A DNA stretch of 61,976 nucleotides, filler included, from Hausera hauseri (taxonomy: Eukaryota), in NCBI GenBank assembly GCA_046269625.1. It is 10 parts of 10 records of this genome, joined end to end, with 100 filler letters (N's around TTAATTAATTAA, not from the genome) between each part and the next. Parts side by side here need not be neighbours in the genome. Positions count along the whole stretch, not along the records: positions 56,944 to 61,976 come from JBJURY010355488.1; 9 more parts are not named here. One strand, written 5' to 3'. Shown in pieces: positions 4,786 to 61,976 of the stretch (its first letter is position 1; each line of letters opens with the position of its first letter). The translations under genes were made by a program, and so were the position numbers. The notes under the pieces were generated by a model that had not been told where the DNA came from, did not search any database, and worked only from the letters and a program-made list of their open reading frames with translations.

Positions 4786-4897
4786 CTTCCTTCTCAAAGG
4801 TCCTACTCCAAAGTGCCAGTGCACAAAACGTCTTTTAGAAAATAAAATGCCAAAGGACTTACAGAAGGACTCAAATAGTTGAAGTATAACAGTAGTA

Positions 4898-5794: not shown

Positions 5795-5830
5795 CGTTTC
5801 CGATTTGTATCGTTGTTTCGTAACTCGTAA

Positions 5831-17570: not shown

Positions 17571-17751
17571 NNNNNNNNNNNNNNNNNNNNNNNNNNNNNN
17601 NNNNNNNNNNNNNNTTAATTAATTAANNNNNNNNNNNNNNNNNNNNNNNNNNNNNNNNNNNNNNNNNNNNTTTCGATTCTAACCAAGGATATGTATTTAT
17701 ATATCAAGTTGTATCGTGAAAAATTATATATTTAAATTTTTATTTTTTTTG

Positions 17752-17810
17752 GAACTATATGACGGCACTACGTCTATAGTTCAATGAATATATTTATGGT
17801 TTTCTCTGTA
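17752..17810. repeat. Partial copy of the 22542-22630 MITE, internal segment inverted
   Basis: ACTATATGACGGCACTACGTCTATAGTTCAATGAATATATTTATGGTTTTCTCTGTA matches the reverse complement of the full copy. Confidence 0.85.
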
Positions 17811-19666: not shown

Positions 19667-20829
19667 ATGGACAAACAACAGAAAGAAAACAACAATGTGG
19701 AGGAAGACATTTTTTATAATCCAGCAGATGAGTGTCGGTTGACACAATCGAGTGTACCAGATTATGAACCGGCACAGAATGGTAAGTATGTTTTGATAAG
19801 TAATGTTGAAAATAACTTTTGATTAGGCAAAGAACTTGAACAATGCAGCAATTTAACGCAGCAGTTAATCGAGACTGCAATGACTATTGGTATGTTATAA
19901 AATTATTATAAAGTAAAATAATGTTTAATTTAGACCCTGTTGATTTGGATGTTGCAGATATAAGTCAGTTGCGACAAGATATGGCACTGACTATATCCGA
20001 CAATGAAGAAGAGTTTGTGGCACCAGAGCCAGTGAAAAAGGTTATCAAGAGACTAGTTGAGCCAGCTAGTTTACAGGTCAGGATGACCAAAAAGAGGCAA
20101 CAAGAAGTGGAAACAGCCGAAGCAGAAGGTCGGAACACACAAGAAAGGAAAGAAATAAGGCAAAAGATGATTGCCAAATTTCATAAGGAATATGAGCGAA
20201 GAAGACAGAACAGGCTAAAGGGAAAGTTGCAAAGTGGTGAAGTTTTAGAGATGGTAAAGTTGGACAGCACAAATGAGCCCAAACTCCATGTTAACCTTGA
20301 AAAAAGGTTCGAGATCAGAACCAAAGTGCCGCAGAATAATGAATTGGAACGAAAATTGGAGGAAATGAAAAGACGTTATGAAGAAAGTAGAAGGGAATGT
20401 GAAGAGTTGAGGAAGCTGAATGAAAGACTGTCAGAGCAAAATGGACACTTCCAGAAGGTGATGGAAAATCAGGGGAAAGTGATAACAAAATATCGGAAGG
20501 AGGAACGGGAGCGAAAGGAGGAGGAGGAGAAACGTAAACGGGCTGAATGTACTAAATCACATGCATTAACAGTGTTATCTGAGTCATTTCAAATAGAATG
20601 TTTGGACAACAAGGAAGATTTTGGAATGATGGCAGTACCTGTGACCATGGACAAAGGAAATCAAGTAGAGGGAGAATCAGTACATATGGTCCCACATGAA
20701 GTTCAAGTGGGTGGAAGTGTAGAAGGATGGACATGCGTTGGAACACAAACAGAGAAGGAGAAGGAGAAGAAAGAGAATGCTGCAATTATTTACAAGAATT
20801 GCAAAATTGTAAATAAATACTGTAAATAG
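19667..20829 (+). CDS. Two-exon unidentified coiled-coil protein (~336 aa; exons 19667-19781, 19934-20829)
   Basis: TATATAA at ~19616, ATG at 19667, phase-1 G|GTAAGT...TTTAG|AC intron that restores the frame, E/K/R-rich heptads, AATAAA near the stop. Confidence 0.7.
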
Positions 20830-22541: not shown

Positions 22542-22630
22542 TACAGAGAAAACCATAACTATATATTCATTGAACTGTAGACGTAGTGCCGTCATATAGT
22601 TCAATGAATATATTTATGGTTTTCTCTGTA
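22542..22630. mobile_element. ~85-bp hairpin MITE with TA flanks (Tc1/mariner-type)
   Basis: TA-CAGAGAAAACCATA..ATATATTCATTGAACT [21-nt spacer] AGTTCAATGAATATATTTATGGTTTTCTCTG-TA. Confidence 0.85.
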
Positions 22631-30929: not shown

Positions 30930-32631
30930 ACACATGTATATGTATGGACCCCTATCTGCAACATGAAAACTGGTGCCTCGATTGAGGACATTCACTCTAC
31001 TGTTTATATAAAACACACCTAATATGATAATGGACAAAGGTTTTATTACGTTGGATAATTTCAGACAATCAATACGGACCAGAGCAGTGTAATATATGCT
31101 TCGGAACACTGGGAAGGAGGTACTCGTTATTCCGCTGTACCCATATAATGTGCACCAGCTGTGCAGATAGCGGGCTGGCGAAAAACCAGTATTGCCCTTT
31201 CTGCAGACGAAAACCTACGTCGTACTAGTGCTGGGGAACCACCGTAGAGGTGATCCCGGACGGCGAAGAAAACGAAGATTTGACAGAAGATAATCCAAAT
31301 GACTTGTATATATTCGGACCTAATGGGCTGGTCTATATGAAATTTGATAATTGTCAATAAATATTACAAGATGCCTTAAGAAGATTAATAGAATAATGAA
31401 AAAGAAAAAGAGAAACTAATCGAACAATGAAAGGTAGAACGATAAAAAGGAATAAGAGTAATTGGATAAGTAATAACTTTTGAAGTAGTAAGTGGTAGTA
31501 GAAACACACTAAAGACTAAAAGAAATTGTATAATTAATCGGATTTGATTGTATTGATTTTAAAATGTATTATATGCCGAAAACTCAGTGGGAATCAAGAT
31601 GGAGAAAATCATTGTCCATTATGTAATTTTGTTGAGAAATTGGGACAACCGGAGGATTCATTCACGTGTGCCTATTGCAGGGAGGATACGGATTTGAGTA
31701 TGATGACGATGGACGACAATTGTTTCCTGTTATGTCCTATCTGTGCCCTGTCATGGGATGACATGGAAGAAATTAATGGATTAATCGATTTATGAAATTT
31801 GTGATAATAATAAAATATAATGATTGATGTAGTTGGCGAAATTTAGTTTTATTAATTGTAGAAACTTGCCCCATCTGCTTGGAAATGATAGCAAAGGAAA
31901 GGACAGTATTATTATGTCAACATCAATATTGTACTTCTTGCCTTGATACATAGATGATGGTGCAAAATACGTGTCCATGCTGCCGAAGATCATACATCTT
32001 TTGTTGGTTATGTTTCCAACTGATCTCGGACGATATAGTGGAACTCTCTTGCAAACACTCATTCTGTAAGGAGTGTATCAAAAACATGTCGAAGCGTACC
32101 AATTATGTCCATACTGCTTTGAAGATATAGAGTATTACACAACGGAAGGGCTGGTAGTATACCTAACTATTCTTAACCAACCATCGATGACACTGGTGAT
32201 TGACGAGGATGATGGCAGTTGGCCAGACGAGTGGAGAAATCCACGGCCATATATAGTTGTAGATTTCGATAACTAATTACTAATAAACTAGTATTTTTAA
32301 GTTGTTCATTTTGTTTTGTTAAGGTTTATTCTGAAGTACGAATCAAATACATATATTGAGCCATGGACTCCCAGTATTCTGTTACACCACAGCAATAAAT
32401 AGCTATACTATATATAACCCATACGGAACTTTTACCCCTGTAGGAAAGGATTGCGCTATCTGTTTGAGCGAGTATTCATTAAATCCAGTGGAACTGATCC
32501 CCTGCAGGCATCAATTTTGTCGACATTGTATAAGAGAATGGCTCATTAAGGAGAATACCTGCCCTGCGTGTCGCACTAATTATAAACTGTTCCAGTATAA
32601 ACATAGTTATTATACCATAAAGAATTTATAA
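30930..32631 (+). pseudogene. Decayed cluster of four C3HC4 RING fingers plus a Cys-rich segment
   Basis: RING0 CNIC..CTHIMCTSC..CPFCR (31088-31207). RING1 CPIC..CQHQYCTSCLDT*..CPCCR (~31867-31986). RING2 CWLC..CKHSFCKEC/frameshift/CPYC (~32002-32117). RING3 CAIC..CRHQFCRHCIREW..CPACR (~32452-32574). CxxC repeats at 31565-31745. Confidence 0.85.
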
Positions 32632-36488: not shown

Positions 36489-36599
36489 TATAAACAATGA
36501 CGGTAAGTATGTGATGATTTAGCGATAGGGATGCATGGTTTTCATCATTTTGCCCCAGTTTACCGAATATTTTATTAACGTTTCATTCTAATTGCTGAT

Positions 36600-37660
36600 A
36601 TGCAAGCAAAAACGACATCATCGACGACAACGATTGGCGAAGTGTGGTTTAATCCACGTCATTCCGTCGGGTATACTGGCGTCGATAAACTGGCAAAGAC
36701 TGTCAAACAGACTCGGCAACAGACCGAATGTTGGCTCGGGAAACAGATAGCATACAGCCTAAACAAATCGATAAGAAGACGGTTTCCAATTCGTACATAC
36801 CGTGCTGCCGATGTAAATAATGTATGGCAAATGTATATGATAGAAATGATTCCGTACGCCACTATCAACGATGGCTATCGGTACATGTTGGCATGTATTG
36901 ATACGTTTAGTCGTTTTGCATGTACAATTTCTGTAAAATCTAAATCCGGTAAAGATATTGCTGATGCTGTTCGGACACTCATACAACAACACCAGCCGAA
37001 GCATTTACAAACGGATTTGGATAAGGAATTCTACAACGCCCATGTTGCAGCGGTCTTGAAATGGTTCGGCGTAAACCACTACTTGGTGTTTTCCTAATAC
37101 AAGGCTGCACTCGTTGAACGATTTAATCGAACATTGCGCAGTCGCATAAACAAATTCTTTACGATGAAAGGCAACCAACGCTGGGTTGATGTACTGCCGA
37201 ATATTATTCATGCATACAATCATTGTACACACCGTGGAATCAATGGAATGCGCCCAGTTGACGTAATCGATGATTTCAACATGTGCCTTTACAAAACCGA
37301 ACACCACAACGACAACAGGAAATTAAATGCAAGAAATATAAATTCGGTGCTTACGTACGTATTTCGAAAATAAGTACGACGCCATTCATTAAGAATTTTA
37401 ATCAGAACCGGAACGACGAGATTTTCCGCACTTCGGCAATCAATACAAAACGAACACCTGTCATGTACGTTTTAGAGGATAAAAACGGTGAGGAAATAAG
37501 CGGTAAATTCTACAAACAGGAACTGCAGGTACTGCCCCAGAAACCCGATGTGTATCGTATTCAGGAAATTTTACGTTCACGTGGCAAAGGTTCGAATAAA
37601 CAATATCTCGTCAAGTGGCAAGGATAAATTGCACCGAGTTGGATTTTTGCATCACAGATT
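36600..37660 (+). pseudogene. Polinton retroviral-type integrase with C-terminal chromodomain-like region
   Basis: YMLACIDTFSRFA, LQTDLDKEFYN, KAALVERFNRTLR, YNHCTHRGINGMRP, YRIQEILRSRG..YLVKWQG. Stops and frameshifts. Confidence 0.92.
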
Positions 37661-40369: not shown

Positions 40370-43345
40370 CCGTTTGGAAAGATAATATGTCCGAGGAAAT
40401 TAACGCGTTTCTGAAAGAAGTTACATTTCGCAAAATTTATCTGTAGGTTGAGCTGGTTAAGTCGTTTGAAGGTAGATCGTAGGTGTTCCTCGTGTTGTTT
40501 AACAGAAGAGAAGGGAATCAAGATATCGTCAATATATGGATGCGCCAAAGTGAAGTCTGAAAGGATTAAATCGATGTGTCGCTGAAAAGTCTGCGCAGAA
40601 TTCCGGAGACCGAAAGGCATATACAAGTACTCATAAAGACCAAAAGGTGTGGAAACTGCAATTTTCTCGATGTCTTCCCGTACGACAGGAATTTGGTGAT
40701 AAGCTTTGGCTAAATCAATTGTTAAATAAACTGAAGTAGTATTAAGCCTATGTAATATGTCTTTGACTAAGGGTAGTGGATATGCGTCCATTATGGTTAA
40801 AGTATTAAGCTGGCGGTAATCGTCGGATGGTCGAAAGGATTCATCTTTTTTTGGACAACGTGGAGAGGTGAAGGCCATGAGAATTTAGATCTGCGGACGA
40901 TACCTGAATGTTCGAGTTCCATGAATTCAACCTCAACTGCCTGCCTGCGACGCAGTGATAATGGACGGGCCTTTTATCTAATAGGCCTTTGATATCTTGT
41001 AATTATATGGTGGTAAATGCCGTTTACAGGAGTGAAGTATACAAAAAGTATGGATGAATTGCTGTAAATTGAGGGTAGTTGCTGGAATGTTGTGAGCGGT
41101 GATAAACCAAAGTTATTAGCAGTACTTGATATTTAGTGGTCAGTCGTTGATGAGCAATTGAATGTAGTTTGGAGTAGGGTGTTCGGGTTCGAAACCGTAT
41201 TTAAGTAAGTGCTGTTGTTCAATGATTTTACTGAAAATATCAAATCGTGAGTGTCGACGTTGAGCTGTCATCGGCTGTCGACATTGTCCGTTTTAAGCAT
41301 ACGTTGTTAAGCGTGATGGTTAATGGAATTATTATGAGTCACTGCGTTTTTTAAGATAGATACCTTACTTACTGTGGACTGTGTTGTCGTCGAGGTGCTA
41401 TTGTCGTTTATTCCTGTGCTACAGTCTACAGATGTATTTGATTTTAGGCAACGTCGGTTACAATCGACTAGTAAATTATAGTGCGAAAGGAAATCGGAGC
41501 CAAATATTGCCGTTTGGACCTTCGCGACTGTAAACGTCCAATGAAAGGGAGAGGAAAATTTTCGCAGAGTGAAAGATAATTTGCAGGTTCCGGCAATATG
41601 AAAAAGTTGACCTGAGGAGGTGTATAAGAGTTTTGTTTTAAATGAGGAATGCTGAACTTGGAAAAGAAAGTGGTCATGGTAAGATCGCTGCATCGGTATC
41701 GATGAGAAAATCTATCGATTGAATGTTAGAAGTCGAGATAGCAGTATTTAGTGTGAAGACTGCAAAAGAGGTGTGACGGCAAGCGGAATTAGATAAGTTG
41801 CCTTTGCCAGAATGTGCCGAAAACACTGGCGGCAAAATCAGTTTTTTGGATTGGTGAGTTAGCATGGTTACTTTATTACTTTAGGTTTATAGTTACAGCC
41901 TAAAATACAATTTCGAGCTCTAAATCCAAATTTTGCATGATAGATGCAAACTATGTTATCCGAGTGTAGATTCGACAAATAATATCTACATCTTAAGCAG
42001 CATTTATTTGCGTTGTTATTAAATTTGTTGTGGTAATAACATATAAATGACCGCATTGGTGACGGTGTTCGATTTCTGGAAGGCGAACGTGTTCGATGAG
42101 GCAAGGAAGCAATGCGTCGATGTAAGGAAAGGTCATTATGCTTATCATTGATGGTGTTGTTTATATGTTGTAGTGACACGTTTGCGGCGCCTAATTGGCT
42201 CAGTTGGTGCTTGATAGATGTATGTCGTTGATTGTCATCGGTAGTAATAGCTGCTGATATGATGGGTTGTGATTGGATTTGTAAGACTTCGTGTGTTTTA
42301 TAGGCCAATTCAGCTAGTTTGTTAAGGCTGTAGAATCTTCAACAACGGCTAGTAAAGCCCTAATTTGAATGGGTAAGGCATTAACGAAATGTCATCGAAG
42401 TAGATCCGGATTGTGTTCCTTAATGACACCTAAAGTACGCAAGTGAGCCAACAAGGTACGTAGGAAATCACTAGATTTTTGTGTCCCCACTGCATTTTCA
42501 TTAAAGAAGCGTTGTATTATCGAATCAATTGATGGTTCTGTCAGTTTTAACACAGCATTTAAGGGTCAAGGTGTTGAAAGATGTCCAATAAGTTATGGTT
42601 GAGGCTTTTATGGAGTTTGGTAGAAGGTAGAGTGGATTATGGGCTTTGGGTAACGAGTCTCTAATACCGTTGGATTGTAACCAGAGTTGGTAGAAGTGGA
42701 GCCAAGTTTTGTTAGAATTTTCATTGTCTATAAAATAATCAGAGCAATGTGGGGGTGTACTGATAGGATTTTTGTGAAAAGAATTTGCATCGGTTGAAGT
42801 AGGTGGATGATTTGATTTGGAGTAGTAGAGAATGAATTTGGGTTTTGTGGTCACCTTATCGGTGGTGTCACTGGGTGGTGAAGAAATCATACCGCCGCAA
42901 ATTCTAGGATGGATATGAATACATAGGTAGTAATGTAAGGACATAATGTGTGGTAGGTCAGTTAAAATGAAACCATTGTGAGTCAAATAAAAATCGCTGA
43001 AGGCGGTGGTATTATGAATGAAGGCATATAGTTGTAATGTCTCGATACATTGTGTGGTATGTATTGTCTGTATTAGGTTATTATTAACATAAAGGTAGAG
43101 GGAAAAGGGTGGTGATAGACAGTAAATCGGATAGTATGGTATCTCGATGGGGTTATCATTGTTTGTTTGCGACGATATGTTTGTTCCGTTGGTTGCTAAC
43201 AAATTGGATATTGCTATTGATGCATTACACAGAGTTTCATCGGAAATAAATCGGATTTTTCAGAGAATTTCGCTGGTCGTTAGCAAATGAGAATCGATAG
43301 TTCTATAAGTCTCGTTCTGCAGTGGTGCAACGGAATCACCGGCGA
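40370..43345 (-). mobile_element. Degenerate CsRn1-like Ty3/gypsy retrotransposon (UBL-gag-PR-RT), copy B
   Basis: Gag with ICYYHNKFNNNANKCCLRC and VCIYHAKFGFRARNCILGC, protease FLIDTDAAILP, RT DYRQLN/IDLAKAYHQIP/HPYIDDILI. Colinear with copy A. Confidence 0.93.
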
Positions 43346-43859
43346 CTTCCTAGCTGCCGGGATAAAACCCGTACAGTCTTTAAGAAGAACCAATTTGTGA
43401 TGTGGAAGGCAATTGAGGCGAAGGATATGGAGTAAACATGCCGTACACAGCAGAGCTGACGGATTTCATTCTTGTGAGCACGATGTCCTCCGATGGGAAA
43501 TTGCAGTTGGATTTGCCAACTGTGAGATTATTCCAGACTCCATGTGTGTCTATTTCGACAGCATAAAGTGTTAAAATAATATTTCTCTTTTTTAAATATT
43601 GCTGCGTAAATGAATCATCACTTAATACCATATTGCGTGATCTTTTACCAAGTGTGGATTTCTTGATAGATGCAACAGATGCCTCACTAGACAAACCATT
43701 ATATCCTCGAATAGTGCCTTCAGGCGTAGAATACAAACGAATCATCGAACTGGCAGATGAATTTGCTTTCGGGAAACTACCGGGTTTTTGCCATAGAAAA
43801 GAAAAGTAATTCGGGTCCAAATCATTGGACATGGTTCCTTTGTTATTATAATGAAAGTA

Positions 43860-45551
43860 TTCTAATCTTCAACACTAGCAGATTGTGCTAAATATTTCTT
43901 TTCTTGACGATATGAATAATTGCTTACTTTCAATACGTTGATTAGTCTTTGCATAATTTCATCGGGATGAAGAGGACTGGCTGTTTTCATGTTCCATGTA
44001 ACACGCAGACTTCGAGGTTTTATACTCGAATGTTCACAGGCGTCCTTGACGTCTGACTTCCTTAAAATTGGATAATCTGAATCACTGGAATTATCATCAG
44101 CATTTGTGTTTTTAAATCGTTCAAAGTATTCGGCATTTTCGAAAGCAAAGGCTCAAATTGACTATGCGGTCTCGTGTGATGTCTGGTTGATTTAGGCATT
44201 TTTGAGGCTAATCTGGTGAGAAAATTCTGCTGGACGACAGGTTCTGGACTGCTGAGACACAATGGATCGATTTCTGTCATTTGAGTAGCTGCAATGCTTG
44301 GAGTAGGGTTTTTGGACGTTACTAACTTTATGTCATTATGTGTGTGGATTGTATTTCGCTCTAGTGTAAAACGCGGGAAATTTGTATTGATTATGTTTTT
44401 CCCAGAATTCTGGTTTTTGACTTCCTTATCACCGGTCGCATGCTCGGACTTTGACAGTAAGAGTTCATTCAATGTTACATCCGGTTGTTTCGATTGTTTA
44501 TACGAATTGAAATCGTCATTTACTGAAGAATCAGTCTGACTGCTACCAGTCTGTAACGATTGTCCATACGTAGGCATTTTATTTTTCTTATAACGAGACA
44601 TGTAAGTTGTCGATGATTCACGAAGAACGTCATTGCTGTTTTTATATTGAGCACCTATTGCTTTTGATTTCTGATTACTTTTAGACGAGGTTGAAGCCTC
44701 CGCAATATTTATAACTGGACCGACAGCGGACATTTGTCCGGATGTATTGGATTTGGATTCATCGTGTAAATTTATTATGTCGGGGAAATTTAAACCTGTT
44801 TCCGTCACAGTGGACACATTAAGAGTAACATTTATCGCACATTTTTTGACATTTGAAACCTGATCGAGAAAAGATTTTTTCACAGACGTTTCATGAGAAA
44901 TGGACGTATCAATATTGACTTGATTCAATCGTTCAAGTATTTGGTCTAGATCGTCTTGATGTTTTGAATTTTTGTTTGTGTTGAAAGAATATTTTATAAT
45001 TTCATAGTATTCAATAGATCTTGAATTTTTTTATCTCCAGAACTGTCAATAGTGTCTAGACCGCCGTTTGTATTAACAAGTTTTAGGTTCACAGTTTTAT
45101 TGGACGTCACACGATTGGATACGGAAGAATAATTGTACGTTTGAGAATTTAAATTTGAATTTCCCGAGTCTTTAGCGATTTCTGGAGTTGTAACAGATAT
45201 AGATTGATGGGAATTTGATTGCTGTAATGAAAGGTTGCTGCCTGCTGTAGCATCAGTTGTTTCAAAAATTCGAATGATCACTTCCTAACAAATAATGTGG
45301 CCGTAAGGTTATTAAATCTTCTAGTCCTCAATGACTTAAAAATATCTTCCTTAGTAAACCCCAGTTTTGCATTTTCTCAATTCGAGCAATGTCATTGAAA
45401 TCTGTCGGAAGTTCCTCGTAAGGAAGTAATTTATTTGTATCAAAACCCATGTTTACCCAGGTGTCGTTCATAATATTTGTCAGCGATTGACGTTTCAAAG
45501 GATCGAGTACGAGCATTTTTCGCAAAAGTTTTTCCCAATCCGTTGACATGT
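43860..45551 (-). pseudogene. MARK: Intronless, disrupted MARK/PAR-1 kinase copy (kinase C-terminus, UBA, spacer, KA1 start)
   Basis: MSTDWEKLLRKMLVLDPLKRQSLTNIMNDTWVNMGF..LLPYEELPTDFND..RIEKM, and KA1 lead-in KPRSLRVTWNMKT..PDEIM. Frameshifts and stops; no introns over 1.7 kb. Confidence 0.88.
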
Positions 45552-45914: not shown

Positions 45915-46868
45915 ATGTCTTCCAGGCGAAGGTTAACAATACAATAGCGTTGTATGATTGCGGTTAAGTCTCAGGAGAGATATTTCTACAGGAAAATAGC
46001 TGAATTGATGGGATGCATACTGTCAACGGTAAGAAGCATTATCAAAAAGCACAAAAGGACCAACTTTGTCACTGATCGCCCTCGCGAGGGTCGTCCAAGG
46101 AAAACCACAACAAAAGAAGATCGACTTCTCATTAGAATGTCTCTTGGTAACCGAAGATTAACATGGTCGGATGTCAAGTCAGCCATGCAGGAAAGCTGTA
46201 ACTTGGATCTAGCAACCTCAACTATAGGAAAGCGTCTCCAAATGTTGGCCTTCAGGGTTGAAATGTGACGAAGAAACCTCTTTCAACACATATACACCGG
46301 AAACGACGTTTGGAATTCGCAAGGGCTCACAAAAATTGGGACCTGGAAAAGTGGAAGAAGGTGGTCTGGAGCAACGAGAGCTCCTTTCAAGTGTTCTGTG
46401 GTGCTAAACGAGCCATAGTAAGGAGGCTCCATAGGACAATGCTCCATAGCATAAGGCCAGGATGGTGACAGCATGCCTCGAGGAAGCTGGCATATCGTTC
46501 ATGGATTGGCCTCCGCAGAGCCCAGATATCAATCCCATTTAGCATTTGTGGGAGATACTCTTAAAATGTTCAGGGCATGAAGGCCGTTTCAAAAGATAAT
46601 CCGTGGGGCATCTTACAGAGTGCTTGAAATGAGCTGTTTGTTTCATAGGCTGGTTGAGTCAATGCCACAACATATAATGGTCGTGATAGCCGCAAAAGGT
46701 GGCAACACTAAATATTAGTGAAGACTGAACAGTTTTGAACTTCTAAAGTGTTTTTTTAATAAACTGTGTATTGGATTGACTTTGTGAATGTTTTTACAAT
46801 AAAATTAATGTTATGATACAAAATCCTGTAAATTTTTTGTCTATGTGGGAAACTTAATACCAGCACTG
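45915..46868 (+). mobile_element. Internally deleted Tc1 (DD34E) transposon with right end
   Basis: PREGRPRKTT, KKPL, RLEFARAH..W..VVWSNESSF, WPPQSPDINPI*HLW, AKGGNTKY*; terminus ...CCAGCACTG followed by TA. Confidence 0.9.
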
Positions 46869-46979
46869 TATATTAGGAAATTCATAATACTTATTATCGT
46901 CCAATATTATTTTAGAAAACCATTTTCTGACAAAATATTTAGGTCAAATGATTTGGAATATACACCTGTATATCATACA

Positions 46980-47804
46980 ATGGTGAAACGAAATTTCAAA
47001 ACTGTCAATATAGACATAAAATTTGGAAAATCAAGTCCAACGGAAGCTCTACATTCTAATGAGGATAATAATGATAAATTTCATATATCTGAAATTAGAA
47101 ATGCTTTGCCAATTCAGGCTGCTGCTACTCGTACTATCGACAATTTATCTCAGCTTCCATTACATGGACCATTTGTCCTCGAAGTATCCAATGTAAACTA
47201 TTGTGCATCCGATGAAAGCATTTACAATCTGTTTAAAAGATTTTCTGTTAAATCTGTCAAATCTAGCCCACAAACAAAAGGAACTTGGTATGTAGAATTT
47301 TCAGATGTTGAAAGCTTGAGAAACTCGTTCAGTTTAAATGGAACTGATTTCGTGTCGCGAAAACTCAAATTAGCACTTGCCTCAAGTGATAAAGTTGAAC
47401 GGATATTTCGGAGTGGTTGTAGTTTTAAAACTTCATATTTAGCATCAAAATCATCAACAATTGTCAATGAAAAATGGAGGAAGGATGATTCTTTGGAAAA
47501 CAAAACAAAACAGTTTGTTGATGACATTAATGACTGGAGGCGCAAACCAGCACAACCAAAAATCGTCACAGAAAACGAAAGTTCCTTAAAAAATACAGAT
47601 AACAACATAGATTTTGATAATTGGCGAAAAGCAAAACCTCAGTTGAATGATGTAAAAACTCCTGATGTAACTAGAAACGATCAAAAATTAACAAGGAACA
47701 ATTTGGGAAATAAATCCAACTGGAAATGGAATTTTAATAAATGTGCCAATATTGATTCGGACAATATGACTTGGCGGAAGAAGCCCAATGCAGAAAAATG
47801 TTAA
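46980..47804 (+). CDS. EIF4B: eIF4B/eIF4H-like RRM protein, intact single exon (274 aa)
   Basis: LPLHGPFVLEVSNVNY..WYVEFSDVESLRNSFSLNG..RKLKLALA (eIF4B-type RRM), repeated D-x-WR motifs (DDINDWRRKP, DFDNWRK, NMTWRKK), AATAAA at 47821. Confidence 0.75.
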   Translation: MVKRNFKTVNIDIKFGKSSPTEALHSNEDNNDKFHISEIRNALPIQAAATRTIDNLSQLPLHGPFVLEVSNVNYCASDESIYNLFKRFSVKSVKSSPQTKGTWYVEFSDVESLRNSFSLNGTDFVSRKLKLALASSDKVERIFRSGCSFKTSYLASKSSTIVNEKWRKDDSLENKTKQFVDDINDWRRKPAQPKIVTENESSLKNTDNNIDFDNWRKAKPQLNDVKTPDVTRNDQKLTRNNLGNKSNWKWNFNKCANIDSDNMTWRKKPNAEKC

Positions 47805-49011: not shown

Positions 49012-50607
49012 TTATTCACCTGAATTTTTTCCTCCGCCAAATAATGCCAGTAAATCAGTGAACCAATCATTGTCGTACAAGCCATCCAATTGGTCAACAA
49101 TGGCCAGTCTTGTGTCTTCATTGAACAATCGAATAAAATTATCATTCGTTTTCAATTCATTCTGCAATTTTTGACAAAATTCATTTGTTTCATTGAGGTA
49201 TTTCTTCATTGCTTTCAATAGTTCTTTGATTTCCCTTACAGTTTGATTAGCTGTTTTAATTTCCGTTTTGGTCGAAATAATTTTTATTGAATTTATGATG
49301 TGAAAATTGATACCTATCTGATTGCTTTCATTAAAAAGCTTGTCTATTTCATTTCCGCATCGGGTTATTTCGGAAAAGTATTCGGGGAACAAAATGTATA
49401 AAATTTCTGTATTATTGATGTCGAATAATCGTCTTATAGTACAATCAGTCTCATAAATCTTGGTGGATAATTTATAAATCTCATCAAATGTGCTTTGGGT
49501 TTGAGCTGTGTTGTCCATTGATGTTGGTCGTTCAAGAATCGCATACTTTGTGTTGTTGTTCAACGAATATTTAACGATAAAACCAAATGTAGAACAATTC
49601 TCAGTCGATTCGATTAATTTTATTAATTTGACTTGGCTTTCCTCCATGTTGCCCTGTGTGAGTTCTTGAAAAAATTGCTCATCAATCTGTTTGACTTCAT
49701 TTATTTTCGTTAATGTTTCACTGAGAATATTTCTTAGTTTCATTTTCTGTTCATTACGTAGTTGAACAACGTTTAAAATTGATTTCAAAAATTTTTTACC
49801 CAATTCAATTCGGAATTCGTCCGCTGTCATTTCACATTGAATCTGTAAATCAGTTAAGTTATCACCGTTTGAACATTCATTAATCGGACAAATGTATTTC
49901 AATAATTTATTGGACGAGCAATTCGAGCAAACGAAATGAGATCCGCATGAAAATGTAAACGCACGTTCAGCAACACTCAAACATACAATGCAATGCTCAG
50001 TGGAGTCGGAGTAAAATTCTGATAAGGTATTCGATAATTCTGGAAGACCGAAGATTAGTTTCAAAAAATCTCTAAAGTATTTCTCTATTAGATTTACATC
50101 TCTTAACTTTGGTAATTGAACCAATCGGTTTACATTAGTATTTTCATTACTACTGACTTCGTTATGGTTTTGAATATTTTCATCTTTTTTGATGTCTCTA
50201 AAATACTTATCTTTATAATTATGAATTAAATTGAATTGCAAATGAATGTGTTGAATTTTGTAAAGTAGAATATTCAACAAATTCACTTTGATTAATGTTT
50301 CTTGATCAATTCTTTTGTCAAACCAGCATCCATTGAAATTGTTGCTGATGTGTTTAAAATTATTCTGAAATGTAGTACACATAGTTTCAAAATATTCATA
50401 ATTTGAGTTCAGCATATCGTCACTTAGTTCCAATATTTCCCGCACTACATTTGCAAATTCATTTTTTATGGACGAGATGTTTATTACCATGTTTCTGTTT
50501 CCATTGGCAACAAACATATCTTTCAAATTATTTTCATATGAATTGATTAACGTCATAAGCGGAATCATTTTCGTTGTCCATGTTTTAATTTTATCATAAA
50601 CATCATT
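49012..50607 (-). CDS. Large helical protein fragment with an internal RING-like finger (5' end cut by gap)
   Basis: More than 518 aa open; CIVC..SCGSHFVCSNC..CPINEC. The layout recalls RNF213-type E3 ligases but this is not confirmed. Confidence 0.6.
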   Translation of the reverse strand, partial: NDVYDKIKTWTTKMIPLMTLINSYENNLKDMFVANGNRNMVINISSIKNEFANVVREILELSDDMLNSNYEYFETMCTTFQNNFKHISNNFNGCWFDKRIDQETLIKVNLLNILLYKIQHIHLQFNLIHNYKDKYFRDIKKDENIQNHNEVSSNENTNVNRLVQLPKLRDVNLIEKYFRDFLKLIFGLPELSNTLSEFYSDSTEHCIVCLSVAERAFTFSCGSHFVCSNCSSNKLLKYICPINECSNGDNLTDLQIQCEMTADEFRIELGKKFLKSILNVVQLRNEQKMKLRNILSETLTKINEVKQIDEQFFQELTQGNMEESQVKLIKLIESTENCSTFGFIVKYSLNNNTKYAILERPTSMDNTAQTQSTFDEIYKLSTKIYETDCTIRRLFDINNTEILYILFPEYFSEITRCGNEIDKLFNESNQIGINFHIINSIKIISTKTEIKTANQTVREIKELLKAMKKYLNETNEFCQKLQNELKTNDNFIRLFNEDTRLAIVDQLDGLYDNDWFTDLLALFGGGKNSGE

Positions 50608-50707: not shown

Positions 50708-51939
50708 GGAACGACTTAAGCACCCTAGATCGTTTTAAAGTCCAAAGTATAGATTAAAGACAAGATTGGGTGCTATTTAAGACGGATGGAACCGTTATAA
50801 AATCAGTAAAATAGCAAGTAGTTCTATGGAACACGAATAAACGAGTGATGAGCCATTGTGATCTTCCTTATAGGATGCCAGAAGGATGTTGTGTCATAAA
50901 TTATGGGAACACTTACACCTTCACGATACGAATGTACTACAAAAACTACGAACGCACACATTAGCACGATAAGACCGCAAGTAAAATTAGTAATACCCGC
51001 CAGAGAACGGGTCAATCCAACAGAACTCAGCGACATAGTACAGTCAACCTATCCGACAAAATGGGCGTTGAATGAAAACATAATCGGTATTTCAGAAGAC
51101 AAGAAAAACAAATGTATCCAAATAGATACAAAGGAGAGATCGCCGAGCAACCAAGAGATTTTAATCAAGTTTAACAAAATAAAGGAATTAAGTCCAATTC
51201 CCCATTATTGTAGCGTCAAGAACACAGATCTTAGGATCTCTTGTAAAATCTCAGAAGGCTATGAAAATAGGATTCATTTTGACCTCTAGGGAATTAAAAT
51301 AAATAAATCGAGCACTTATTTAGGAACATATTATCCGGACAATAGAATCTAGAAAATTGCAGTTGAAACGACGGTGATGAGACTGAATGTTCCAGTAAGC
51401 ATTATTGTTAGGCTTACTACGACGAAAAAGATGAACAAAAAAAAATTGCTTTAGATTCCTGTGAAATGCTGGGTACAGCAACGCAAAATAGTATTTTCGG
51501 TAGAAGAAAAGCTTTACTATGACGTTGAAATAAATTACCGTACGATGCATATACACGTAAAAATAACCTTACTGAAAACGCATACCACACCGAATGAAAT
51601 TCTTGAATACCAAAGACAGAGTACATAATACAAATACATGCGAAAGACCTACAGAGTCAAACCTTTGCACTACAAACCCTCGAGGAAATACAAGTAGCAC
51701 TACATGCAAGCAAAGACATGGGATATGATACAACTACAGACGTAGTTACTACAAAATCTAAAGGGCTGACTGCTTTGCGAATTATAATGATCGTAAGCTT
51801 GTCAACATTCGTGCTTATAATATGTTTCGCGGCTTTTCGATAAGTCACCAAAAATTGTTAGAATAAGCGTCCTAAAGTCATAAAACGGGAATTAAGGGTA
51901 TTGGGACCCCAAGAGTACATCTATGATAAAATAACCTGA
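50708..51939 (+). pseudogene. Envelope-like type I membrane glycoprotein, C-terminal part, disrupted
   Basis: Cys-containing ectodomain fragments, then hydrophobic IIMIVSLSTFVLIICFAAF (~51781-51837), a basic stop-transfer tail and a terminal YDKI (Yxx-phi) motif. Confidence 0.5.
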
Positions 51940-52038
51940 TAATCAGAGATCGGGCTATTCTATCATCAAACAAAGAATTGGTTTTGGTTCAAAACCACAC
52001 TTTGTCATAGGATTAACCCTTACTATTTATTTTTTAGA

Positions 52039-53815: not shown

Positions 53816-56800
53816 AGTAGGGTAAAAATGGGGAGTCTGTCCCACCCCAGGGGGACGGTAATCGATAATTCAATTTTGCACATGTGCCAATCGAGAGTGC
53901 ACACTGTGTACTATCGATCGGTAGTGTGCTAGGCAACGGTGCCGCTAGGCACCGTTGCTATTCACATTTTTGCACATTTCAAAAATCGATCGCTGCACAT
54001 TGCAAAACTAATAGAATCGATCGGAACAAAGTGCTAATCGATAGTGCACATCATTGCTCATCGATTAGTGCACAGAGCAGGTGTGCAAGCTTGCAAAAAT
54101 CAATAATATCGGATTTCCGATATTTCTAATATTGACGATTAGCACCTGGCCCCGGGTGCAATCGAAAGGACGCATTATAGACTGTGTCAATGTGCAGTTA
54201 GAATTTAAAAATATTGATTGGTTTTCGAATAATTGCCAATTGGGACAGACTTCAAATCTTAAGGCAGATATTCAAAATTCGAATATTTTCGAGCTCGAAT
54301 ATCGTAGTTCGAACTATTTCAAAAATCTAAGAAAGGAAATCGATTCCTCATGTATAAAAACCCCCTTACATATAAAAATTATTTCACGAAAATGTACTAT
54401 ATATATACAAAATCAATATTTCGGATTAAGCAAAATGTGAATTTCAAGCCCAATGAAGCGGAAATCAATAAATCTTATAGCGGGGCTGGATAGGAAATCA
54501 TGTATGCTGAATTGGAATATGGCATCAAATATTCGAAATCGAGCTTCCAAGTCGAATATTTACCTATTCGAACTCGAATAATCGATCAGGCATGCATTAT
54601 TCGAAGAATCTGCTCAATCAAATTATGAAGACCCTTACAATGTCCATAAACGGCACTTGATTTTCTTCACCAAGTCGAAAAAACAAATATGACAATAACG
54701 ACTTTTATGGCAAAGGAAAATCGAGGGTTCAGTTCATATGTGTATTGCACATGTGCAATACACAATCCTCAGAATTGCCACAATACCATGAGGAGCTATA
54801 ATGGGCACAAATTCAATATGACAATCTATTATATCTGCCCAGGATGTGAGGCTGTATGTGATGGAGAATACATACAGTTTTGTGAAGATCACAAACATCA
54901 TTTGACTGACTTCGCATCAAAGTCAAAGAAGACCATCTTTATTGAACATAAGCCAGTTGCACAGTCTGCAGTACCACAACCTGTAGTACAACCAGATGCA
55001 GGACTAAAACGCGCATCAGGCGCATCAGGTGTAGCGGCTTTAACAAAAGTCAAGGACAGCGGCCATTTAATTCTGCAGCATAAAATAGGAAATGCCGCAA
55101 ATATGTCATTCATGCAACTGGTCAAACAACCATCAAGGAGTTCCTGGAGTACACAAAAGAAGAAACAGAGGGGATTCTTCAGGATATATGACTGAACTCA
55201 AAGCTATAAAGTCAATATGAAACTGAAAGTCACATACATCAATGTTGATGGCGAAGAGTCCAAAAGAGCCTTCAAGATCTGAAATAGGCCCATATTGGAA
55301 AACACCAATATAGTGGAATGGTCTAATCAGCAACATTGGAAGTTGATCCGTGAAGCCGATGACTGCCAGGATAAGAAGAGTGAATGGACTCTGGCAATCA
55401 TCAAGAGATTGCTTGTGTATGTTTACAAATACTTGTCCATGCGGAGCAGCTCCTATATACAGCTTCCGGAATGGATCGTAAGGAAAAAGGCATGCATCAA
55501 TGTTCTTAATGATGACAACAAGTGTTTCGTGTATGCCATTTTATGTAAACGCGTACGGGATCAAAAACATGCATCAGATCGAGTTTGGCTATATAAGGAT
55601 GTCAGCACAACTATGACTTCCAGTGTATCACATTCCCGCCATCCATAGATGAGATCAAGAAGTTCAGTCGAACCAACAATATATCAATCAATAACATTAT
55701 ATTGGATGAGGAAGATAAATTCTATTTCCTGCAGATATGTGATGATAAATTGGAATATCGTAGGGATCTGCTCCTACTAGACGATGGCGAAAAGAGGCAT
55801 TTCATCTGGATAAAGAACTTTGAGTGTCTAGTCAGATTCCAAATTACGAAACATAAGGAAAGAATCAAAGTATGTAAACGATGCTTGTCTCATTTCAGCG
55901 GCTAGTTAGTTGTAGAGAAGCTGAAGGAGCACAAGATGTACTGTAACAACAATTACTGTATCAGGCCAGAATTCCCCAAGGAGGACTACATTGAATTCAA
56001 GGAGTTCGAGAAGAAGATCAAGATCCCAATAGTTATCTTTTGCGATTTTGAGGCTATTCTGCGTCAAATTCAGATATGAGGTCCCAGTCATCAGCATAGC
56101 AGCACAACGGCATACCAATATCATAAACTCTCATCATATTGCATGTATGACAAAGGACTTGATAGTGAGCATTCCTGTTCAGAGGTCTAGATGCAGCAGC
56201 ACATTTCATAGAACGATACGGGATACATACTGGAGGTGGATATGGAATATCTGGCTTTCATCCACGCAAGGCATCAACAGCTGCCTTTCCTCCCTGAGAG
56301 CAGGCCTCCGCCCCATGAAATCAGAGAAAGCTGCTCTGCCATCTGGGTAGTAGGAAGAGGTATGTAGTTCACTACATTAATCTCCAGCATGCAGTTAGAC
56401 ATGGACTTCGTATCACAAAGATCCATAGCGCCCTTCAGTTCAGCCAGTCCATGTGCCTGCAGCCCTACATAGATATCAATACCAGTCTGCGGACTAATGC
56501 CAAGAAAGATTTTGAGAAGGACCAGTTCAAGCTTTACAACAATTCGGTCTTTGGCAAGATTATGGGGAACGTCGGGAACAGGATCAACATAGAACAGGTA
56601 TCTGACTGGAAGTGAGCAAAGAAGCTCATTCCCAAGCCCAATTTCCAGCAGCACCGTATATACTGAGAATTTGGTATGTATCCGTGTGCTGAAAACAGCA
56701 TTGGTATTCAACAAGCCTATATATGTGGTATGGAAATACTGGATCTATCAAAGACCTTAATGTATTATTACCACTACGACATCATGGTCCCCAAGTTCAA

Positions 56801-56843
56801 GTCCATGCAGCTCATGTATATGGATACTGACAGTTTCATCTAT
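53816..56843 (+). mobile_element. Polinton/adintovirus left arm: repeat-rich putative terminus plus deleted protein-primed DNA polymerase B
   Basis: SSYIQLPEWIVRKKACINVLNDDNKCFVYAI, FEKDQFKLYNNSVFGK, ILDLSKTLMY..HY..QLMYMDTDSFIY. Upstream non-coding tract starts AGTAG and is rich in ATCGAT/GTGCAC/TTCGAA. Confidence 0.85.
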
Positions 56844-57029
56844 NNNNNNNNNNNNNNNNNNNNNNNNNNNNNNNNNNNNNNNNNNNNTTAATTAATTAAN
56901 NNNNNNNNNNNNNNNNNNNNNNNNNNNNNNNNNNNNNNNNNNNTTAAACTTACTGTTCCATTCACTCGTAATAGTAACATGTGTGGTTGCTGTAATCATT
57001 CAGGTATTCAGTTAGCAAGATTTCATGGA

Positions 57030-58759
57030 CATGGCTGCACAAGAAACATTGAAGATTATTCTGATGCCAGAAAGTTCAGACGACGATGACGACATTGTCG
57101 ACGGAGATGAATGCATATATGAAGATTACACCGAAGAGCAGGATTAAAAGGCTGATGATGCCGAAAAAGTCAACAACAATTCCAATGATGTTTAAAGTGA
57201 TTCTAATGACGCTGAGAAAGGTCAAGACTGTTCAAGTAATGACAAAGATGCAGCAACAATGAAGATGAGTCAATGATAATGCTCTTTATGAAATAACAGA
57301 CCAAAGCAAATGAATATTCAGCGTTACCTCTCCTGACACGGTAATCAGTGATCATCAGTACCAACACAGATTAATCCAAGATGTCGAACACCTGTTCACA
57401 ACGTAGTACATCAGCAGTCAGGTCCCACTTGTGAAGTTGTAGAAAAAGCAGTAACAAATCAGGGTGCTTTCAACAGTTTTATAATACAAGACATGATTCA
57501 GATCGTTGTACAATATACGAATGAAGAAACATAAATGGTGTTACTACTTCTGACGGGCTTTTATCGTGGTCACCTAGAACTGATAATCCATCTTTGAAAT
57601 GTTTAACAAGGTGGACTCATCTTCGGTAGTAATGTCGCTAAATCGTTTTCAGTTACTGAAACGAATGATGCATTTTGATTCCAGGGACACAAGAGAGAGA
57701 TAGCGCTGACAGAAAGATAAGATGGTTCCAATAAGAAACATACATGACAAGTTCGCAGTTAGATGCCGAACATTGTACAAACCATGTCCTCAGCCCTGTA
57801 TTGATGAAAAGTTGCTTGTCAACCGTGGTTATTGCCCGTTCAAAATCTGCATCCCCGTAAGCCAAGGAAACATGGGTTGTATATGTGGGTTTGTTGTGAT
57901 GTTGATATATCATACGTGTGAGACTTGCAGAGGTATACCGACAAGCAAGGTCAAACACTGGAAGTAGATTAAGCAACAAGAGTAGTTCTGCAGCTGATAG
58001 AACCTAGGACTGGTTTAGGGCGAGACTGTACTGGAGACAATTTTTTCACATCACTCACTATGGCGAATGCTCAGCTAACCAGAGAGATAACCTACTGTGA
58101 AATAATCAGACATATTCGACACTTTCTTCCATCTGCCCTGTTGGACACAAAACAATGAAATATAAATTCGAGTTCTTTTACTTTTCTCGGCGACAAAACA
58201 GTAGTGTCATACATACCGAATCGAGAAAAGAATGTTTTACTCTTTTCAACGCAACATCACAATGAAGAAGTACATGATGAACGTGAAGATAAAAAACCGC
58301 AGATAATCCTCCACTACAATCGAACAAAAGGAGCAGTCGATAATGTTGTCAAATTTATCAGAACGTATTCATGCCAACGTAAATCACGAAGATGCCCCAT
58401 GATTTTTTCCATAACTTATTGGACATCGCTGCTACATTGCAGCCGTGGTTTCCTTCTCAGTAAATCCTGATTTCGACAAAGGTAAACTACAAAGCCGCTG
58501 TCTTTTCTGGAAAGACTGGCTATTGATATGATTGCTTTCAATCCATAATCGGAAAAATGACATTACAGATGCGATTACATTACCAGTACACATTCCTGAC
58601 TGGGTTTCAACAGCAACAAAACCAGCACGAAAACAAGCTCGTTGTACACTGTGTCCAAGATCAACAGACAGAAAGACTGTGGAAAGGTGCAGCATTTACA
58701 ACAGCAGCATCTGCAAAGACCATGCACGCAATGTATATAATCCACAATGCAACCAGTAG
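57030..58759 (+). mobile_element. Degenerate piggyBac transposase
   Basis: Acidic N-terminus; CIDEKLL..RGYCPFK; TGDNFFTSL; KNVLLFSTQH; KPQIILHYNRTKGAVD; C-terminal Cys-rich RCTLCPRSTDRKT..C...ICKDH. Confidence 0.92.
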
Positions 58760-59010
58760 CGAATGGATGTTTAGCACATGCAATCTACAGATTGTCACTG
58801 ATTGTGTACAGTACTGAACAGACACAAACACTGAATAAAACAGTTGTTACAGTTGTTACCGTCTCCCACTATAACAATATTAGATTCAATTTAGATTAGC
58901 TCTGTGAGCAGGTTAGTATTACTCGTTCTCGAGTAATCTGCTTGTGCCTTAAAAATTAAATACGTTAACTGTATACTGCGTGTACTGCGAGAGCCTAAAA
59001 ATGCTTGATC

Positions 59011-59550
59011 TGTTTACTTGTTTTTCGACTTAGCTATTAATTTTAGACAATGATTTTTCCCTTAGGGTACTACAAATCGTCCTTAAGGGACGATGGAAAA
59101 CTATAGAATTTTGAAAAAAATAAATGAATACGTAATAACCTTTATTTGACACGTGGACAATATGATGGCTTCAATCACGGAAAACAATACCTCAAGTCTC
59201 TTTTAATAGTGAAGAATATATTGCAATATATCGATTGACACAACTGATCACTGCGATCTTAAGTCGCAAGTTTTTTTGGTTCTGCCTGTTTTGTTTTCGG
59301 GGCTTACTTATATAAATCTCTGAACGGATTCAACTTTGATTTTTCCTAATTTACTCTGTGTTATAATTGAATTATTCAATTTAATCTTCATTAACCTACA
59401 GTAAATAAATTTGTAAACTGTAAACTATTCGCATATGATAAATTAGCAATCAGTTCATTTTTAAACTATAAACAAAACGGATATTTATCTAATTTAATTT
59501 ACGTACAGCCATAATTCAACTTTAGTTTCGATTATTGACCTTTTATGACA
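59011..59550 (-). repeat. Putative ~540-bp 3' LTR (TGTCAT...TAAACA) preceded by PPT AGGGAGGAAAAA (59551-59562)
   Basis: A pure purine tract abuts TGT; TATATAAG (~59310) and AATAAA (~59143) lie in the expected order. The distal end is tentative because no second LTR is present. Confidence 0.6.
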
Positions 59551-61960
59551 TTTTTCCTCCCTGAACGACATCCTCGGAAGTTCCTATTGCGTCAGAAGAG
59601 GTGGCGCCAATTGTCCTTAATGGTCTTAATTGATTCATTCTCTCGTTCAGATCGAATGAGGATTCTCGACGGTTTCGACTAATATTTGGGTTTGTTTCCA
59701 AATTATAACTATGATAGGATTTTATTCGAACGATGCGTGTATAATTTCCGTCAGAGTAGTACTTCAATTCTGTGGCCTCAGCTCGGCACACTTGACATGT
59801 TGTTTTTCCATTGTCAAGTGTCCACTTCTCTAGACAGTCTCGACAATATTTATGACGACAGCTTTTGTTATCTAGTATTACATACCCTTGTCTTAAGTTA
59901 GCTTCACAGACGGGACATTCATTATCCTCCTTGTCCCAATCGTCTCGATCTAAATCTACTTGAATTATCAAATCGATAGGCTCGAATACAAGGTCATCTT
60001 TATCTTGGTATAAGTAGCCATGAATCACTTTATGTTTGGGTTAATTGAGCTCTTACGTGGGTCACAATCCACTTGGATTAAGGTCCAGTCTGCCATAACA
60101 TTTTTGTCCACATCGGGGATATTTCCTTCTATCTTATACTTCTGATATTGTTTCTTCAGTAATACTCGGATTTGTTTGTCCACGGGAACTACTATTTTTC
60201 CTGTTCTTTTTGAGCGGAATATTGAAGTGAGATAGGCTCCGAGTCTAATGTTCTCCTATACATAGGTATTTTCGAAAACCTCTCTGGCTGGGGCAAGTTT
60301 GATGAAGAACATTGCTTCCTTTATTATTTTCTTACCGTAGTATTCTGTGGTTATCAACATTCGATGAAATTCTTGGCTTGTTTTAAAGTGTACATCCTCT
60401 TTACTTCGTTGTCCTATCAAGGCATTGATTTCCGTTATTATGGGATTCCTAATTCCCTTTTCAACGGTTCTATGTTTTGAGAAGTGCTTGGTTGATTCTG
60501 CTGGTTCTCTACTTCTTGTCCTTCGTCTGTTTTCCGCCTTTTGAATAGGTAGTTGTATATGGATAATGTTTTTCTGGGTTTGGGTTTCTCTTCTAATTTC
60601 ACCTTTTTAATTATTGTTGCTGGTCTTATTTCTCCTCTTCGTTCTTCTGGGGGCTTTGATGTTCCTTGTAGTATCTTTTCTTTTTCTTTAATTGTTAATG
60701 ATTCCATCCTGTTTTCGGTTCCCTGTTCTGGTACCGTAATCTGGCGACTATGTTTGTCTGTAAGCTGAATAGTTCGAATTGGGGAATAAGGTTTTATACT
60801 TCTATATTTTCCATCTATCTATTCAGGTTTTATAGAACTGTGTAGATTGTACGTAGGATTTCTATGGACCCATTCATGTTCCCATTTTAGTGTTATATAA
60901 ATTTCTTGTAAATATCTAGACCGTTGGCTAGCAGTCAGAAGTCTCGTAATCTTACTCGGATTTTTACTCGTAGCTTCGACGGTTATTTTGAAGAAAGCTT
61001 CTGGTGCCGTTGGTCGATTTCGTCCTTGCACGGTGTTTCCATCCGTTCTTGGACTACCGAATGGTTAGCTATTTCCCTAAGTCCGGCGATATTTGCGTCG
61101 GATATCCCTAATAGCTTGATTTCTCTTTTGACATTATATCCAGTTATTATGCATCCGTAAAGGCAATGTTCCAACTCTGAACGGACTTGTAAGATATTCT
61201 TTCCATTTATTAATTGGTCTTTTCTTAGACCAGTCACTTCCGCATGTGACTCCTGGCCGTGCTTTCGAGGGTTTATGATGGTTGCGTATAACTCGGATCC
61301 GTCTCTTTCTCGGATAAATACCTCAATCTGTATTTCATATCCATAATCTCCTCTACCATAGTTTGTAGCCAATATTCTTATGTTGCGACCGTCTTGGACT
61401 AATTTGTATGATTGCAAATGCTCATCTATTTCATCCTCTGTTGGAATTTGTTCGAATTGTAGGACTGGCAAGCCTAAGTTGCAGTCTTCTTTGTAGGTTA
61501 TTTCGAACATCAACTTGACGGGTAATGCTGTTACTCGGAATTCTAATCCGTAGTCGATAGTCTCTAGACCTTTTCCGCTTATTTTGAATGTGCTGAATCG
61601 GTATTGGCGCCCTTAATTTCCATCCCAGTGCTGATTTTTAATTCTATAGTAAACTTCTCCATCTGCCAAGTGTATGAATACGTTTTCCATTCTGATCGTT
61701 TTACTCTGGATTAATTCTTTCAGATCATATGACTTAGCCTGGTGATTATCTCTCATTGCGTATAGTGAAACCATGCGGTTATCTTCGGTAGTACCCTTTA
61801 GATCATTGAGTATGTTAGTTACTTTTCGGTATTCGACATATATTTCAGTTCGTAGTGCATCGTTAATTCGGCGGTATATCCCTTTTGATTTTGGAATAAG
61901 AACTATTCCATACTGTTGTAGGAATTTGTCAATCCTGGGTCGGCTGTTCGTACTTACCAT
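59543..61960 (-). pseudogene. Accessory 'ORF-X', copy 2, ending in a C3HC4 RING finger
   Basis: About 800 codons in fragments homologous to 52039-53500; terminal CPVC..SCRHKYCRDCLEKW..CQVCR; the stop codon lies inside the start of the putative LTR. Confidence 0.8.
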
Positions 61961-61976
61961 TCTGAAAGAAAATACA

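Follow-up and report, generated by a model that had tools for sequence, protein, structure and literature searches.

Long terminal repeat (LTR) retrotransposons of the Juno and Vesta type in bdelloid rotifers carry an active DEDDy exonuclease as a third open reading frame, ORF3 (PMC5408684), which is echoed in PMC6338049. The giant gypsy elements Burro and GYPSM1 of planarians have env homology, the protein AIR1 with a RING zinc finger, and MATH/TRAF, BIR and SUMO-like domains, and these ubiquitination-linked domains were proposed to meddle with host systems (PMC6431247). Gypsy elements of Phalaenopsis carry an open reading frame for an AlkB m6A demethylase that is active in vitro (PMC9289625), and errantiviruses possess an env of the F or gB type (PMC13524379), as described in the available text of these sources. 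Here we analysed a 61,976-nt stretch of Hausera hauseri DNA (assembly GCA_046269625.1), hereafter the window, which consists of ten separate contigs joined with N-spacers. On the minus strand of contig 10 (56944-61976) lies a gene, termed ORF-X, at the apparent 3' end of a probable LTR element.

We read this locus as the 3' remnant of an element present in many copies. Its accessory gene combines a predicted barrel, a dead DEDDh exonuclease and a C3HC4 RING finger, and likely encoded a nucleic-acid-binding ubiquitin ligase acting against host silencing; the probability of this reading is about 0.6. The element itself is very probably an LTR retroelement. On balance, we lean slightly towards an ORF-X that follows gag-pol and a gene for a membrane protein and is expressed through a spliced RNA.

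A preliminary description of this DNA had reported a 2.4-kb open reading frame directly behind a splice acceptor. The acceptor-like tract and the ATG are present, but the frame is not open. Between the start ATG (61960-61958) and the terminal stop (59545-59543) of the minus strand, it is broken by in-frame stops at 61615-61613, 60821 and 60258 and by frame changes near 61030, 60450 and 60037, and the longest open piece has 209 amino acids (aa). The contig 10 copy is a pseudogene. It was formerly one gene, because an intact homolog, P0001 (870 aa, with a RING), is colinear with all four pieces, which align to it in order at 34-48% identity. P0001 was the sole match among 1708 candidates in a longer-protein search; a search for homologs of near-equal length returned none among 1360 candidates and also missed P0002, and is hence insensitive. 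A phmmer search of the 209-aa piece against 1.84 billion representative proteins gave six matches (P0001, P0002, P0003, P0004, P0006 and P0005), of which P0005 was dropped as a spurious match (S-layer/NosD). For the depth analysis we used the public runs X1, X2 and X3, the latter two labelled as other organisms; depth sums all contigs of a run and does not give a copy number. Most of the depth in X1 and X2 disagrees with the contig 10 sequence at two of its three stops (among the rows listed), and these breaks therefore look private to the contig 10 copy.

The divergent homolog reported on another contig, directly downstream of a membrane-protein gene, was found again on contig 9 as a second broken copy. 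Over 280 aligned codons, the proportions of nonsynonymous and synonymous differences between the two copies are 0.32 (pN) and 0.84 (pS), indicating that the ORF-X protein was constrained before decay. Outside the three recognised domains, ORF-X comprises a charged, poorly conserved linker and a conserved region preceding the RING, the larger piece of which found no match in Pfam.

The claim that ORF-X ends in a complete C3HC4 RING is confirmed by two Pfam families: the contig 10 RING scores 30 bits against PF00097 (cut-off 21) and 32.6 bits against PF13639 (cut-off 27.3), and that of P0001 likewise exceeds the PF00097 cut-off. Active RING ligases use a helix Trp and an Arg after the last Cys for binding of the ubiquitin-conjugating enzyme (E2), and both residues are present here. 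Moreover, no other stretch is as well conserved between P0001 and the contig 10 copy as the RING. With eight zinc ligands at RING spacing, it is by sequence a candidate C3HC4 ubiquitin ligase (E3). The assignment of ORF-X as a 3' accessory gene ending in a RING holds.

The same description had called the gene unrecognised, which no longer applies, as its N-terminal half holds a DEDDh exonuclease domain. The ORF-X profile including P0006 matched ISG20L2 at 2.6e-15, and also SDN1, PolC and ISG20; without P0006, the PolC exonuclease was the best match at 1.7e-4 and ISG20L2 was weak at 0.015. By hhalign, P0006 aligned to 273 columns of the ORF-X profile (95%, E 2.5e-8), covering both the N-terminal domain and the nuclease. 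P0006 exceeds the Pfam cut-off for RNase_T, retains all of the residues D, E, D, H and D, and has no RING. By contrast, the four ORF-X copies that cover ExoI have A, A, A and S for the Asp and N for the Glu, the three that cover ExoII have M, E and I for the Asp, and two copies have K or R for the His and C or R for the Asp of ExoIII, where the register is gap-dependent. Because the catalytic residues are intact in P0006 but replaced in the ORF-X copies, the ORF-X domain is, judged from its residues, a DEDDh pseudo-nuclease. The RNase_T-clan rows of 0.85-0.89 given by Atlas served as a lead only. The shared N-terminal domain, the intact DEDDh residues and the missing RING suggest that P0006 is a candidate active relative, and further suggest, without a tree, an order of events in which an active exonuclease with the N-terminal domain came first, followed by loss of catalysis and gain of the RING. 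Two other phmmer matches, P0003 and P0004, contain as many as four DEDDh-like domains in tandem, and in several of these the catalytic motifs are altered. P0004 comes from the spittlebug Clastoptera arizonana, is named exonuclease and has no Pfam match of its own.

The N-terminal domain was approached through a model of P0001 built from an 8-row alignment, a single-sequence model having been discarded for its predicted local distance difference test (pLDDT) score of 31. The model is fairly confident only at residues ~52-215 (pLDDT 58-87 per 10-residue block) and over the first 24 residues, which probably lie ahead of the actual start. A VIA comparison of the N-terminal domain gave Ofd2 (Z 8.9, root-mean-square deviation (rmsd) 3.8, 139 aligned residues) and ALKBH1 (Z 8.6), pointing to a double-stranded beta-helix (DSBH) fold. 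The iron triad HxD/E...H is not conserved across the copies, and a single His is invariant in a 4-row alignment. Overall, we take the domain as a predicted barrel that is probably non-catalytic. Foldseek of the barrel against the PDB gave nothing at E<=0.001, and its weak rows include coat proteins of RNA viruses (E 1.8e-3). Rows from a viral structure library were distrusted, as the rmsd was at least 16 in the 20 best.

The end of the element was described as a polypurine tract (PPT) running into TGT, which we confirmed. A run of 12 purines followed by TG occurs at one site on the minus strand of the window and at three on the plus strand. The C-terminus of P0001 reads VQGG-x-M-x-stop as in the contig 10 copy, which suggests the same PPT overlap in its underlying DNA (DNA not seen). 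In the 697-bp segment beyond the PPT, four of the first five bases are complementary to the far end, and a piggyBac-type region starts beyond 58854. The X1 depth is 707-11,200 in 15 ORF-X bins and 17,760 in the LTR-end bin, compared to 4.5 at a 1050-bp identical unique piece and 8-57 in 11 piggyBac bins, with a drop from 17,760 to 18 across the LTR end; X2 and X3 have the same shape at lower depth. This contrast indicates a large family of repeats, and the surplus at the LTR end resembles that expected of paired and solo LTRs. In addition, a single contig in X2 and another in X3 run on beyond the LTR end with the same sequence over the ~30 letters available, in which a primer-site-like start follows after a few bases, as expected of a 5' LTR followed by internal sequence. 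The LTR-retroelement claim thus stands on the unique PPT-TG junction, the TG...CA segment of LTR size, the highest depth at the LTR end and the related copy with the same protein end; its proposed linkage to gag-pol was not found.

One part of the earlier argument, a TATA (59314) followed by AATAAA (59146) within the LTR, is rejected as evidence, since the pair is at chance level (350 of 1000 dinucleotide shuffles of the LTR). Both motifs sit in two X1 bins of depth 62-66, compared to 707-17,760 in the rest of the element, and are thus not family-wide, and a hairpin that follows AATAAA is no more stable than shuffled sequence (z -1.07). The low-depth part also contains TCAGTT (59247-59242, minus strand), which we take to match the insect initiator consensus.

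At the 5' side of ORF-X, the acceptor-like TTTTCTTTCAG at 61972-61962 is followed by A-ATG. In each of the two window copies, a pyrimidine tract and AG are followed by four bases and GTAAGT; only contig 10 retains the ATG behind the acceptor. P0001 and P0002 translate as F-rich-(K/L)VS at the corresponding place, which fits the same DNA motif (DNA not seen). This layout hints at spliced expression with a micro-exon or an alternative donor. The gene upstream of the contig 9 copy had been called env-like. A membrane span was found, with one 19-residue stretch at 51781 of mean hydropathy 2.77 that suits the C-terminal anchor of an errantivirus-type env, but env homology was not: four pieces searched against Pfam, three against the PDB and one against proteins (0 of 366) gave no match at all, F and gB included. 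The membrane gene has the A-rich strand bias of ORF-X and therefore probably belongs to the element. The coordinates of all features are listed in the table below.

Table. Features of the ORF-X element and its flank, in window positions
Feature	Position	Strand	Basis
Decayed piggyBac-type transposase region; flank hosting the element insertion, outside the element	56944..58853	+	PF13843 E 5.1e-5; frames; depth 8-57 in X1
Putative 3' LTR, 697 bp, TG...CA; middle ~59128-59463 common to few contigs	58854..59550	-	Termini, depth
Polypurine tract, within the last ORF-X codons	59551..59562	-	12 purines, then TGT at 59550
ORF-X pseudogene, ~800 codons, three in-frame stops and three frame changes, colinear with P0001	59543..61960	-	Alignment
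C3HC4 RING (candidate E3), eight ligands complete, helix Trp and Arg after last Cys	59786..59917	-	Pfam, sequence
Conserved pre-RING region, limits approximate	59930..60370	-	40-48% identity to P0001
DEDDh (ISG20/REX4-type) exonuclease domain, catalytic residues replaced; limits approximate; spans a frame change	60870..61400	-	Profile comparison
Predicted N-terminal DSBH fold (2-oxoglutarate (2OG)-oxygenase/cupin-type), limits approximate	61480..61940	-	Mapped from P0001 residues 54-210
Splice-acceptor-like tract, 4 nt, donor-like GTAAGT	61952..61972	-	Sequence; same layout on contig 9, 52025-52047 (+)
Gene for a type-I-like membrane protein, broken, lying upstream of the second ORF-X copy; Cys-containing ectodomain, short tail	50708..51940	+	Contig 9
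Second ORF-X copy, divergent, broken, ends before the RING	52054..~53815	+	Contig 9; 44-48% identity to the contig 10 copy

Several observations weigh against the reading of ORF-X as the RING-bearing accessory gene of an LTR retroelement. No reverse transcriptase (RT), integrase, second LTR or target-site duplication was tied to ORF-X, contig 10 ends 16 bases upstream of the ATG, at 61976, and no contig of the runs spans the stretch. Six protein-based scans of sequence collections with ORF-X or P0006 patterns yielded 5, 174, 15, 44, 54 and 84 pattern matches, and tblastn bore out none of them; these collections include IMG/VR and do not contain DNA of the element's host. The upstream membrane gene matched no env, and is itself broken with its 5' end missing. 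The middle of the putative LTR (59128-59463) is only 62-66 deep in X1, which a fast-changing U3 or a private insert would explain. As for the protein, the contig 10 RING has no Pro before the last Cys pair, and the same copy retains an acidic Glu at the position of the ExoII Asp. The P0001 model is mostly below pLDDT 50 across the exonuclease and RING parts. For the barrel, AlkB-like, prolyl-hydroxylase and cupin rows are tied within one Z unit, the best Z of 8.9 barely exceeds the 7-8 that the comparison tool rates common and comes from an 8-row model, and sequence methods give no DSBH subfamily support (E. coli AlkB did not match the family profile, and Atlas gave no usable match for residues 52-215).

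A search of viral contigs with an LTR motif gave no matches, and three metagenome matches were taken as chance, being confined to the 19-20 bp motif without ORF-X. Nor were the gypsy remnants on contigs 1 and 7 taken as the missing pol, as their strand composition is C 0.26-0.27 and G 0.13-0.14, compared to C 0.19 and G 0.19-0.20 for the element.

One alternative is a non-autonomous LTR element without pol that would carry a receptor-like membrane gene and ORF-X as captured cargo and be copied in trans by the enzymes of a different family. Such an element would agree with the absence of pol, with a membrane protein that matched no fusogen and with gypsy remnants that differ from the element in strand composition; presumably, the motifs seen by eye in the ectodomain are fibronectin-III-like, a resemblance no search supported. 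But neither contig reaches the expected place of pol, ORF-X was under protein-level constraint, and P0001, P0002 and P0006 lie on contigs of 12-16 kb, enough for a full element, so that we regard this explanation as quite unlikely. The main rival is a different role within an LTR element, that of an RNA-binding factor for packaging or trafficking of the element RNA, in which the RING would serve only for turnover or location of ORF-X itself. Dead DEDD domains that retain RNA binding are known from Maelstrom and EXD1, according to the available text of PMC5408684, and RNA-virus coat proteins appear among the weak Foldseek rows for the barrel; yet the conservation of the RING between P0001 and the contig 10 copy goes beyond the need of self-turnover, and P0006 does without a RING. 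We therefore think this role doubtful.

The remaining explanations place ORF-X outside LTR elements. The DNA adjoining the contig 9 copy holds a remnant of a type-B polymerase, DNA viruses often make use of RING ligases and dead oxygenases, and the N-terminal domains of vaccinia C16 reached Z 7.3, all of which would suit a cargo gene of a Polinton/Maverick or an endogenous DNA virus. That copy, however, is cut mid-gene at the junction, which fits an insertion, and the contig 10 copy ends in PPT-TG...CA without such DNA and has no relatives in IMG/VR, making a DNA-virus origin very improbable. Still more remote is a family of host genes or retrogenes. Each of the three domains has relatives in hosts, and P0004, with its DEDDh repeats, is a named protein of an insect, but the depth is hundreds of times that of unique DNA, introns are absent, the end is PPT-TG, and two decayed copies lie within 62 kb, both amid transposon debris.

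The other contigs of the window are AT-rich eukaryotic DNA rich in transposon remnants, which points to a host that is probably an invertebrate. On contig 9, the stretch 53816-56843 (+) is Polinton/Maverick-like, carries what is left of a type-B polymerase (PF03175 E 4.6e-4, under the cut-off) and contains YMDTDS at the end of the contig; the DNA interrupting the contig 9 ORF-X copy is most simply a Polinton-like insertion. Contig 6 encodes an rve integrase (36579-37627, +; E 1.3e-9), which we assume to be probably of Polinton type, followed by a weak chromodomain match. On contig 5, four RING-like motifs and more Cys pairs lie in short, broken, intronless frames (31000-32620, +); the cluster looks like virus or Polinton cargo and has no homology to ORF-X beyond the RING. 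Contig 7 carries a gypsy-type RT (40370-45030, -; PF00078 E 1.6e-30) with several unrecognised open frames of 155-322 aa upstream. An intronless open frame of 647 aa with weak fn3 matches on contig 1 (6740-8683, -), which in our estimation resembles FNDC3, is possibly a captured or retroposed host gene, and a gypsy-like remnant (~1400-4640) lies downstream of it. On contig 8, a frame bearing an RRM (46809-47804, +), presumably eIF4B/4H-like, converges with an intronless 531-aa frame with a weak RING match and a coiled coil (49012-50607, -). On contig 3, identical 36-bp direct repeats (17775-17810 and 22595-22630), 4820 bp apart, flank a charged frame of 305 aa (19912-20829). No tRNA genes were found in the window.

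For the accessory gene of the LTR element, we propose that the dead nuclease and the barrel would keep the binding of RNA or single-stranded DNA ends, or act as decoys; in this way the RING would reach a protein of host silencing or restriction and ubiquitylate it, likely for destruction. We advance this mechanism tentatively, at somewhat less than even odds. A bolder version, which we rate as rather unlikely, has an undescribed lineage of retrovirus-like invertebrate elements, of the order gag-pol-membrane gene-accessory-LTR, encoding an RNA-sensing ubiquitin ligase. This protein would be made from two host enzymes that have been disarmed, one an antiviral nuclease of the ISG20 type and the other a barrel of the oxygenase type; it would bind to nucleic-acid ends or to silencing complexes and bring about the destruction of a host factor, with P0006 as its RING-less active forerunner.

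To our knowledge, little is settled about how LTR elements of invertebrates withstand PIWI-interacting RNAs and other forms of silencing, and only a few suppressors encoded by such elements have been described. A family with very high representation, carrying a fusion of RING and dead nuclease under selection, offers a testable suppressor candidate; the contig 10 copy itself is dead, P0001 provides a natural intact protein and P0006 a natural active-site control. If true, the proposal would trace a path from enzyme to pseudoenzyme to E3 within a transposon.

Among viruses, the RING ligases ICP0 of herpes simplex virus 1 and IE2 and PE38 of baculoviruses, as well as the dead oxygenase C16 of vaccinia, aim at host defence. 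They resemble ORF-X as parasite-encoded RING proteins or dead-enzyme decoys, but are DNA-virus proteins without homology to it beyond the RING or the general fold. The analogy with ICP0 that had been drawn for this locus is thus loose, as ORF-X also contains a dead DEDDh and a predicted DSBH domain, and ICP0 has only the RING in common with it. Other likenesses are found among LTR elements. Similar to ORF-X, the ORF3 of Juno and Vesta is a DnaQ-superfamily exonuclease encoded as a separate 3' accessory frame of an invertebrate LTR element; it differs in being RNase D-like DEDDy with intact catalytic residues and in replacing env, whereas ORF-X belongs to the ISG20/REX4 DEDDh type, no longer has the catalytic residues, carries a barrel and a RING in the same protein and lies behind a gene for a membrane protein (PMC5408684, in which the word RING has 0 occurrences). 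Burro and GYPSM1 are likewise invertebrate LTR elements with ubiquitination-tied domains, RING among them, but these lie mostly inside a gag-pol polyprotein of ~5,000 aa, and the available text describes neither an exonuclease-RING fusion nor such a 3' accessory gene (PMC6431247). The AlkB protein of the Phalaenopsis elements is an accessory protein of 2OG-oxygenase fold in an LTR element, seen as a counter-defence to RNA-level control; it is near plant AlkB proteins, whereas the ORF-X barrel is a predicted fold with the metal motif missing (available text of PMC9289625). Errantiviruses, which are LTR elements of metazoans, likewise have a gene for a membrane protein in their 3' half, but no F or gB homology was detected in that of the ORF-X element (available text of PMC13524379). 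The words exonuclease, RING and ubiquitin have 0 occurrences in the main text of PMC13524379, and the available text of PMC12440569 mentions no exonuclease or RING. A published report of a fusion of barrel, pseudo-nuclease and RING was not found, and Repbase/Dfam, subscription papers or supplements (e.g. the tables of PMC13524379) may hold one. Altogether, the combination is without a report found in the sources available, and each of its ingredients has a precedent among LTR elements (PMC5408684, PMC9289625, PMC6431247).

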